Source of the DNA: Candidatus Moraniibacteriota bacterium
GTDB taxonomy: Bacteria > Patescibacteriota > Minisyncoccia > Moranbacterales > UBA2206
Assembly (NCBI GenBank): GCA_049304095.1
Contig: JBAQNU010000024.1
Span: 11,893-75,892 of the forward strand
Direction of reading: 5' to 3'
Length of the DNA: 64,000 nt
Part shown: in pieces, positions 17,430 through 17,753 of the stretch
How positions within the stretch are numbered: position 1 is the stretch's first letter
Layout: every line of letters begins with the position of its first letter
Translations under genes and position numbers: made by a program
Notes under the pieces: model-generated
Seen by the model: only the letters and a program-made list of their open reading frames with translations
What the model was told of the DNA's origin: nothing
Database searches by the model: none

Positions 17430-17543
17430 ATGATAATTCGCAATGATGGCTTTGATGACTGCAATGGGGGCGGTAATACCGACGGTCAAGTAGACGGAGA
17501 TGACAATGGCAATGACAACACAGGCGGAGAGAGCGATGATTAG
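17430..17543 (+). CDS. 37-aa Gly/Asp/Asn-rich acidic peptide (unannotated small ORF)
   Basis: AAGGAGG Shine-Dalgarno 8 nt upstream. TTCAAA-17-TATAAT promoter-like sequence upstream. Sequence MIIRNDGFDDCNGGGNTDGQVDGDDNGNDNTGGESDD. Confidence 0.4.
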   Translation: MIIRNDGFDDCNGGGNTDGQVDGDDNGNDNTGGESDD

Positions 17544-17582
17544 TCATTAATAAGAAATTTAAACTAGAAGGGAGGCGGATAC

Positions 17583-17678
17583 TATGAATGCTGATGAAGG
17601 CGATGGTGGTCCCTGGGGAACCGATGGTCCTGATGATGGTCCTGCAGGTCCTGGTGGTGGTCCCTTCGATGGTGATTA
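17583..17678 (+). CDS. 31-aa Gly/Asp/Pro-rich acidic peptide (unannotated small ORF)
   Basis: GAAGGGAGG Shine-Dalgarno upstream. Sequence MNADEGDGGPWGTDGPDDGPAGPGGGPFDGD. A terminator follows. Confidence 0.4.
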
Positions 17679-17729
17679 AAGAATTTGGCACATATATTGA
17701 TTTCTCCCACAAATCTAGCTAAGACATAA

Positions 17730-17753
17730 GCAGGCACGAGAGCCTGCTTTTTG
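17730..17753 (+). terminator. Rho-independent terminator after the acidic-peptide operon
   Basis: GCAGGC-ACGAGA-GCCTGC followed by TTTTT. Confidence 0.6.

Follow-up and report, generated by a model that had tools for sequence, protein, structure and literature searches.

The 64,000-nucleotide stretch of contig JBAQNU010000024.1 from Candidatus Moraniibacteriota that we analyzed (hereafter the window) contains, in a 629-nt intergenic region, two very short open reading frames (ORFs) in tandem. ORF1 (17430-17543, + strand) encodes a 37-residue peptide, MIIRNDGFDDCNGGGNTDGQVDGDDNGNDNTGGESDD, with a net charge of about −10, and ORF2 (17584-17679, + strand) encodes a 31-residue, Pro- and Gly-rich peptide, MNADEGDGGPWGTDGPDDGPAGPGGGPFDGD, with a net charge of about −8. 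Both translations are exactly as quoted in the original prediction, which had been made from the sequence alone and which described the products as acidic and Gly-rich; indeed, the Asp/Glu/Gly content of the two peptides is the most extreme among the window's 912 ORFs of at least 20 residues.

Upstream of each ORF lies an extended Shine-Dalgarno (SD) sequence that ends 7-8 nt 5′ of the ATG, a functional spacing, as the original prediction had claimed. The SD of ORF1, AAAGGAGGTGA (17412-17422, + strand), lies 7 nt from the start codon (8 nt counting from AGGAGGTG), and all 11 of its nucleotides are complementary to the 3′ tail of 16S rRNA, TCACCTCCTTT, a tail sequence taken from contig L007 of a related Moranbacteria genome (GCA_035390125.1). 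The SD of ORF2, CTAGAAGGGAGG (17564-17575, + strand), comprises 12 nt, including one G-U pair, and the ATG follows 8 nt on. When the 629-nt intergenic stretch (17306-17934) was subjected to dinucleotide shuffling, two or more combinations of an SD, an ATG, and an ORF of at least 30 codons arose on one strand in 3 of 5000 shuffles (p ~6e-4), and one or more arose in 47 of 5000 (~1%). The SD-ATG-ORF pair at 17430-17679 is not a chance product. Among the starts of the window's 59 larger ORFs most leaders are A/T-rich and lack an SD, and an SD core of at least 6 nt occurs at only three starts, those of ORF1, ORF2, and an ORF at 60834. The strongest SDs in the window are found on tiny ORFs (e.g., 60834-61097), and a pair of hydrophobic 30-residue ORFs (53666-53758 and 53770-53862) with strong SDs and a terminator directly follows the second copy of the 16S trailer described below.

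The promoter and the terminator that had been predicted to flank the pair are both present. The promoter-like region (17353-17394, + strand) matches the consensus with TTCAAA (17353-17358), a 17-nt spacer, and TATAAT (17376-17381), and a second, extended −10 element of the form TGnTATAAT, TGCTATAAT, can be read at 17386-17394. Downstream, AAGCAGGC-ACGAGA-GCCTGCTT followed by TTTTTG (17728-17754, + strand) resembles an intrinsic terminator, with its hairpin at 17728-17749 and an 8-bp stem that includes five G-C pairs. The promoter half of the claim is the weaker, however, since six promoter-like matches were found where 8.4 were expected from shuffles, and a site of a kind no commoner than in shuffled sequence is weak evidence.

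Several other readings of this stretch were rejected. The folding z-score of the transcript is +1.24, not unusually structured, and an Rfam scan of it matched no family; both results fit an mRNA rather than a small RNA, and we rejected a structured-RNA reading on these grounds. A frameshifted pseudogene of one longer gene is incompatible with the 40-nt spacer between the ORFs, which has stops in all frames. The notion that the two SDs are inverted fossil copies of an attachment (att) core was dropped because the alignment is limited to the 11-nt SD/anti-SD core (p 0.02-0.07), and since any strong SD would align in this way the alignment does not distinguish the two interpretations. The gene caller behind the Logan assemblies, an independent one, called both ORF1 and ORF2. 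A second sample (L004) has DNA identical to the window locus and hence no variation to exploit; at L004 446-610 the caller ran through the TAG of ORF1 to give a 54-residue product (P0035), a genetic-code artefact that arises when short contigs of the Candidate Phyla Radiation (CPR) are called automatically.

Conservation of ORF1

Is either reading frame maintained as a protein? A homologue search with the ORF1 and ORF2 peptides concatenated as the query revealed one relative of ORF1, P0058 (MINYKDGFDDCNGGGNTDGQVDGDTNGWDNTGGNSDE), a 37-residue peptide with 81% amino acid identity that is encoded at 396-509 of L098, an unrelated 1.5-kb contig. The two genes have equal length, and their ATG and TAG codons coincide. 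Their DNA is 71% identical, and the 33 differences are distributed 5/5/23 over the first, second, and third codon positions; one of them is a switch between AGC and TCA that leaves Ser unchanged. The proportion of differences is 0.855 at synonymous sites (pS), which is saturated, and 0.164 at nonsynonymous sites (pN). Over codons 6-33 the corresponding values are 0.886 and 0.083, and 26 of the 28 core residues are conserved. None of 20000 random placements of equally many changes reached the observed amino acid identity. The reading-frame conservation that the original prediction had called for is therefore found for ORF1, preserved in P0058 with an excess of synonymous change.

This homology is confined to the ORF, from ATG to TAG, since a tblastx comparison of L098 with the window and the other loci found no similarity besides ORF1. 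The comparison shows that ORF1 is a genuine protein-coding gene kept by purifying selection, that it represents a new micro-protein gene family with two members, and that it moves as a unit between two otherwise unrelated, mobile-looking contexts.

An antisense ORF of 94 residues, rich in His and Cys, does exist at 17428-17712 (− strand), as originally noted, and its expression in place of the micro-ORFs had been named as a possible refutation. We rejected it as a gene and as the selected product: its frame keeps 13 of 37 residues between the two loci and has a stop in L098, where the antisense ORFs are split into pieces of 23-28 residues, and the 94-residue product has no Pfam match. Only one frame of ORF1 besides the coding frame is well conserved, the wobble-matched antisense frame, which in the window is interrupted by stops.

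No further members of the family were recovered. A profile search with the ORF1 family alignment in a collection of 5.8e9 clusters and a search of the metagenome collection with degenerate DNA patterns for the peptide cores were both negative, and blastn of 16200-18560 against phage and plasmid collections found no match. Two pattern matches in the viral collection, both within unrelated larger proteins, were dismissed as chance, NTDGQVDGE inside a 204-residue high-GC protein (L099) and EEDGFDDCNG inside a larger ORF (L100).

The second reading frame

The coding status of ORF2 is plausible but unproven. The case for it consists of its SD and ATG, its position in the promoter-terminator unit of ORF1, for which coding is established by the comparison above, and the odd composition that the two peptides share. 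The conservation that was to have been checked for both micro-ORFs was not found for this one: no search returned a relative, and phmmer against 1.84 billion representative proteins retrieved ORF2 itself only. A paralogous relationship between the two ORFs was dropped, as shuffle tests gave p 0.89 for the proteins and p 0.51 for the DNA; the two are alike in composition only.

We consider it doubtful, though a serious contender, that ORF1 alone is functional and that ORF2 is incidental, decaying, or arising de novo in att-proximal junk, its SD being one more purine-rich match to the 16S tail where fragments of that tail abound. Besides the missing homologues and the lack of significant similarity between the two peptides beyond composition, this explanation draws on contig L098, which holds the ORF1 homologue without ORF2 and whose next gene encodes a 116-residue Cys-rich protein; on the several degenerate copies of element arm and 16S tail in the region; and on the makeup of ORF2, which consists of GGTCCT/GATGGT-type repeats and has another frame that is also open. 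Set against it are the 12-nt SD at the ideal spacing of 8 nt, a kind of site that is rare in the genome, the ~1% frequency with which even one SD-ATG-ORF combination arises by chance in a stretch of 629 nt, and the placement of ORF2, with the same extreme composition, inside the promoter-terminator unit of ORF1.

The other open frame raises a further question, namely which product a second cistron would yield. It encodes a hydrophobic peptide of 44 residues (17588-17722, + strand), overlaps ORF2, and begins with an ATG that lies 12 nt downstream of the SD, and the window contains other hydrophobic micro-ORFs with strong SDs (53666-53758 and 53770-53862), so a membrane-active 44-residue peptide could be imagined in place of the acidic 31-mer. 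We regard this as very improbable. The 12-nt spacing is poorer than the 8 nt of ORF2, a Met/Val-rich shifted frame is an automatic by-product of GAT/GGT-rich coding, the equivalent shifted frame in ORF1 is stopped in both family members, and the gene caller picked the acidic frame.

Attachment remnants at the 16S rRNA 3′ end and the neighbouring gene

The direct repeats that had been thought to bound the islet can be assigned to a specific target. The repeat CATyTCyTCCCACGAATCACCTC occurs at 16513-16535 and 17920-17942, its 16-nt core having two occurrences against 0.03 expected, and it is composed of a conserved element arm joined to the core ATCACCTC of the 16S tail. The left copy, CATCTCTTCCCACGAATCACCTC, comprises arm and core (16513-16535, + strand). 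The right junction (17917-18198, + strand) reads through the arm, TTTCCATTTCCTCCCACGA, into the last 12-13 nt of 16S rRNA, ATCACCTCCTTT, which include the anti-SD, and then into ~250 nt of trailer. Window positions 17935-18198 are 88% identical to L007 2787-3052, and L007 carries a complete 16S rRNA at 1307-2798 (Rfam); the window from 17935 is thus the last 12-13 nt of 16S plus trailer. In L007, L008, L009, and L022 the 16S gene is contiguous with its tail and trailer, and the target is uninterrupted. The 16S body was not found in the window or in 8.8 kb further left; to the left of 17935 its place is taken by the micro-ORFs, an ADP-ribosyltransferase (ART)-like gene, and integrase, HEPN, XseAB-like, Old, and helicase-nuclease genes. 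These alignments explain the repeats as att remnants at the 16S rRNA 3′ end, and the earlier claim that the locus lies in mobile DNA bounded by repeats is upheld.

A second copy of tail and trailer lies at 53272-53503 and is 75% identical to the first; ATCACCTCCTTTCTAGGGAG, which matches the 3′ end of the complete L007 16S, occurs at both 17935 and 53272. The two copies bracket 35 kb containing more integrases, a primase, ParB, TerL, and other cargo, and integrase genes are found at 2836, 15301, 18558, 20582, and 29688, among others. We read the region as a probable tandem array whose elements were inserted at the 16S 3′ end by tyrosine recombinases. Sequence from the 16S end is also present at L005 5741-5985, L018 1712-1793, and L022 2550-2860, with more islands left of 17935, and in Moranbacteria the 16S 3′ end looks like an integration hot spot for tyrosine recombinases. 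The arrangement resembles the genomic islands and prophages that tyrosine recombinases insert at the 3′ ends of tRNA and tmRNA genes, in that the direct repeats copy the 3′ end of a stable-RNA gene, tyrosine recombinases occur in tandem, and a related genome retains the uninterrupted site. It differs in its target, which is the 16S rRNA 3′ tail, including the anti-SD, plus the trailer. Our literature searches turned up no description of a 16S 3′-end attachment site or of 16S-targeting integrative elements in the CPR.

Smaller traces of the same sequences lie close to the micro-ORFs. A degenerate copy of the element arm (ATTTCTCCCACAAATC versus ATTTCCTCCCACGAATC; 17700-17715, + strand) is situated just 3′ of the ORF2 stop, with a marginal p ~0.04, and a degenerate 16S tail with the first trailer bases, GGAGGATTTCTAGGGAGCAATTTGACAAAATC (17852-17883, + strand), is read as a fossil att junction.

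Immediately upstream of the micro-ORFs lies a gene for a 225-residue protein (16628-17305, + strand) that the original prediction had named an ADP-ribosyltransferase-fold gene, an assignment that structure prediction bears out. This protein has an identical counterpart in a metagenome-assembled genome of a 'Candidatus Moraniibacteriota bacterium', which places the host in the CPR (Patescibacteria). The AlphaFold2 (AF2) model has a local confidence score (pLDDT) of 91, and its top Foldseek matches are DarT1 (8baq), Tpt1/KptA, and pertussis-like toxins, with probability ~1.0 and TM-scores of only 0.3-0.45; in Pfam and PHROGs the protein has weak Tpt1 matches only. The model thus supports a DarT/Tpt1-like ART fold, and the gene is cargo of the same islet as the peptides.

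Could the peptides be partners of this enzyme? In such a scheme they would be antitoxin-like inhibitors that mimic the nucleic-acid substrate of the adjacent DarT/Tpt1-like ART, and the phage-like homologue of ORF1 would be an anti-defence version. The peptides are polyanionic, have strong expression signals, and lie immediately 3′ of a gene whose best structural match, DarT1, is a DNA-ADP-ribosylating toxin; no macrodomain or DarG-like gene is nearby, and the stand-alone homologue on L098 sits in a cluster of tiny, phage-like-looking genes. The resemblance to DarTG and other ART toxin-antitoxin or defence pairs ends with the fold of the adjoining gene, however: DarG is a protein with a macrodomain rather than a peptide, and this ART family shows no conserved pairing with micro-ORFs. 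Synteny had been suggested as a check, and it came out negative. None of ~90 loci with ART-like homologues has a similar micro-ORF beside the gene, tblastn of both peptides against these loci gave only noise (best E 0.26), and the neighbours vary greatly without any conserved partner among them, a pattern that speaks against obligate toxin-antitoxin pairing. Furthermore, the ART genes of L018 and L005 are followed by an att arm, the 1.5 kb of L098 contain no ART gene, and the cassette, which has a promoter of its own, stands 125 nt away from the ART gene. For want of synteny we therefore gave up the idea that ORF1-ORF2 partners the ART gene, and we judge the antitoxin scheme to be decidedly unlikely.

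The ART homologues offer a second comparison, with elements rather than partners. Arm and tail also lie 3′ of homologous ART genes on the independent contigs L018, where the arm is within ~10 nt of the ART stop codon, and L005, where it is ~140 nt downstream with degenerate helix-45 fragments between. The abutting arm in L018 implies that the ~590-nt micro-ORF module is an addition relative to related elements. Many ART-like homologues sit in phage-like gene strings. A contig scan with the ART protein found nothing, and one with the ART alignment found only one distant locus in Alphaproteobacteria. At L018 435-1706 the ART-like homologue is fused to an N-terminal domain of ~210 residues (423 residues in total), which by eye looks like an alpha/beta-hydrolase, and the element arm follows directly.

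A number of further observations concern the islands themselves. In the trailer copies (17990-18130, 53330-53450, and L005 5880-5985) the motifs GCTGGTCG and AACAGC are kept around a hairpin whose sequence varies while its pairing is kept (CTCCAAT/ATTGGAG, CCGCC/GGCGG, TTTTTTC/GAAAAAA), and this points to a trailer or att element with a conserved structure. Adjoining the first repeat on its left, at 16476-16500, there is a tRNA/tmRNA-like T-arm (fragment 16476-16492) with an acceptor 3′ strand, GGGGGTTCGATTCCCCCTCTCCACA, that matches tmRNA model positions 347-363 (E 4.5e-4); the window as a whole contains no complete tRNA or tmRNA. LOOT RNA (RF03000) occurs twice, at 3818-3940 (101.6 bits) and 30653-30779 (87.8 bits), each copy ~115-130 nt 3′ of a 283-residue tyrosine recombinase (2836-3687 and 29688-30539) and both within a repeated module of a D12 methyltransferase, ParB, a protein of 199 or 179 residues, TerL, a protein of 150 or 164 residues, integrase, and LOOT; this RNA may be linked to satellite-like integrative elements.

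The defence-type cluster at 6846-15228 encodes a PDC-S37/Hhe-like helicase with a C-terminal restriction endonuclease domain (1197 residues), an Old-family nuclease with AAA_15 and TOPRIM domains (658 residues), an exonuclease VII large subunit with an HRDC domain fused at its N terminus (505 residues), XseB (69 residues), and a HEPN protein (249 residues), followed by integrase; the pairing of Old with HRDC-XseA/XseB is unusual. To the right of the junction, relatives carry other insertions. At L007 3046-5875, and also in L008, L009, L013, and L014, a LexA-like gene and a ubiquitin-like system (Multi_ubiq, a ThiF/E1-like protein with DUF6791, and BubE) lie between the 16S trailer and the gene for a 66-residue protein, a site at which the window has ~110 nt. 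Compared with window 18307-18623, some relatives (L010, L011, L013) have a histidine kinase and response regulator directly after the 66-residue DUF5049-like gene, in place of Int2, Int3, and primase, and homology stops ~65 nt into the Int2 ORF, an end point that marks another insertion boundary.

Possible functions of the acidic peptides

What might the products do? Neither peptide has a match in Pfam, PADLOC, PHROGs, or the PDB. AF2 modelling of ORF1 from a shallow alignment of two sequences gave a mean pLDDT of 53.6, a pTM of 0.12, and no secondary structure, and the peptide is predicted to be disordered. Its sequence abounds in D/N-G turn motifs, and it has no conserved partner gene. As read from the sequences, neither peptide contains a hydrophobic segment, a signal peptide, or a double-glycine leader.

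The absence of these features bears first on secretion and modification, which the original prediction had listed as alternatives and which now look unlikely, as no modification or export genes are nearby. Small peptides with one conserved Cys and a highly conserved core could be precursors of ribosomally synthesized and post-translationally modified peptides, of bacteriocins, or of peptide signals, but there is no modifying enzyme, protease, or transporter common to the two contexts of ORF1 or beside either, nor any of the leader features just mentioned, and of all the explanations that we weighed this one seems the least probable.

We tentatively favour the following reading, without regarding it as established: positions 17353-17754 would be a self-contained cassette, made up of the promoter-like site, two SD-led micro-ORFs, and the terminator, that encodes stand-alone polyanionic binders. 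The cassette would lie at the right end of an element integrated at the 16S 3′ end of this CPR bacterium, among cargo genes and the debris of att sites. ORF2 would be co-transcribed with ORF1, and its own, very strong SD would direct its translation. As intrinsically disordered polyanions, the peptides would work stoichiometrically and by themselves, with no need of partner enzymes, since the two contexts of ORF1 share no neighbour. Their target would be a basic surface, most plausibly the groove in which an enzyme that acts on DNA or RNA, for instance a defence nuclease or an ADP-ribosyltransferase, binds nucleic acid, and divalent cations may participate via the conserved D/N-G turns. For ORF1 as a stand-alone binder we propose, with low confidence, an anti-defence or regulatory role.

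Several findings weigh against this reading. The family has two members, so the test for selection is a single pairwise comparison, and the L098 homologue has no SD, which means that a strong SD is not a conserved feature. Genes of the host mostly lack an SD, while both micro-ORFs are SD-led. An ORF of 31 codons is not long in itself, and ORF2 has no relative in the protein, 5.8e9-cluster, viral, and metagenome pattern searches. The NCBI Prokaryotic Genome Annotation Pipeline (PGAP) annotates nothing between WA064_03510 (the 225-residue gene) and WA064_03515 (the 66-residue gene, at 18373). No PADLOC, PHROGs, Pfam, or PDB match ties the peptides to a target, and the tight conservation of residues in the core of ORF1 exceeds the apparent needs of a purely electrostatic mimic.

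The main alternative is a cation-binding loop peptide, which we think unlikely on balance. The peptides would form Ca2+- or Mg2+-binding loops, DxDxDG/EF-hand-like or beta-roll-like, that fold only with metal and serve as a chelator, a buffer, or a metal-dependent ligand. The loop motif of DxDxDG and EF-hand proteins is D-x-[DN]-x-[DN]-G. In ORF1, D22-G-D24-x-N26-G27 fits this motif, and in the two sequences substitutions (25, 28) fall only at non-ligand x positions. Moreover, residues 18-33 show a [DN]-[GT]-x-x periodicity of four residues, strict conservation suits a geometric binding site, and a low pLDDT is to be expected because AF2 is unable to model metal-dependent folding. On the other hand, the Pfam models for EF-hand, Excalibur, TSP3, dockerin, and RTX are not matched even at E<=10, nor is any PDB sequence, the PROSITE pattern PS00018, applied manually, fails at loop position 8, where a hydrophobic residue is required, and also at position 12, and one 37-residue peptide would provide one or two sites at most.

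Returning to the polyanionic binders, we can ask which known systems they resemble. The cassette is similar to the morons of phages and other mobile elements in that it is a compact unit of promoter-like site, ribosome-binding sites, and terminator between cargo and att end, is missing from the related elements L005 and L018, and has its ORF1 isolated in an unrelated context; it differs in its CPR host and in products of 31-37 residues, far below typical moron size. Likewise, the peptides share with DNA mimics and acidic anti-CRISPRs such as T7 Ocr, ArdA, AcrIIA4, and AcrF2 a high negative charge, a location in mobile DNA, and defence-type genes nearby. However, those proteins are folded, have ~50-170 residues, and present a DNA-like charge array, whereas the peptides described here are short, rich in Gly, Asn, and Pro, and predicted to be disordered, and they show no sequence or profile similarity to the known mimics in Pfam, PADLOC, PHROGs, or the PDB. 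A literature search on DNA mimics that are small and disordered yielded nothing of direct relevance. T4 Stp, a phage peptide of 26 residues that targets a type I restriction enzyme, is a lead in that a product of fewer than 40 residues can act on a host defence enzyme without a partner; it is not acidic, and its sequence does not resemble those of the peptides here. The DNA-mimic or anti-defence role put forward in the original prediction rests on charge and context and is, in our analysis, neither supported nor excluded.

A bolder version of the same idea, which we consider improbable, is that ORF1, and perhaps ORF2, founds a family of ~35-residue polyanionic micro-proteins that CPR elements and phages exchange in the form of a free-standing cassette and that neutralize nucleic-acid-targeting defence enzymes, such as the DarT/Tpt1-like ART or the OLD/HEPN nucleases of the same island, by substrate mimicry. 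If true, these would be the smallest anti-defence or antitoxin proteins described, carried on elements that target the anti-SD tail of 16S rRNA.

Finally, some consequences follow whatever the function. Standard annotation systematically misses genes of fewer than 40 codons, and PGAP passed over both micro-ORFs here. A single diverged copy sufficed to reveal the purifying selection on ORF1, validating a tiny gene from sequence alone. A 37-residue Gly/Asn/Asp peptide that has a net charge of −10 and a near-invariant sequence and that crosses unrelated mobile contexts is an unusual accessory gene product. If it turns out to inhibit a defence enzyme directly, or to be a metal-dependent ligand, it could easily be studied in synthetic form. 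To our knowledge, the mobile-element and defence biology of CPR bacteria (Patescibacteria) is almost unknown. The 16S-tail context may outweigh the peptides themselves, for it presents tandem integrase-bearing elements at the anti-SD end and trailer of 16S rRNA.

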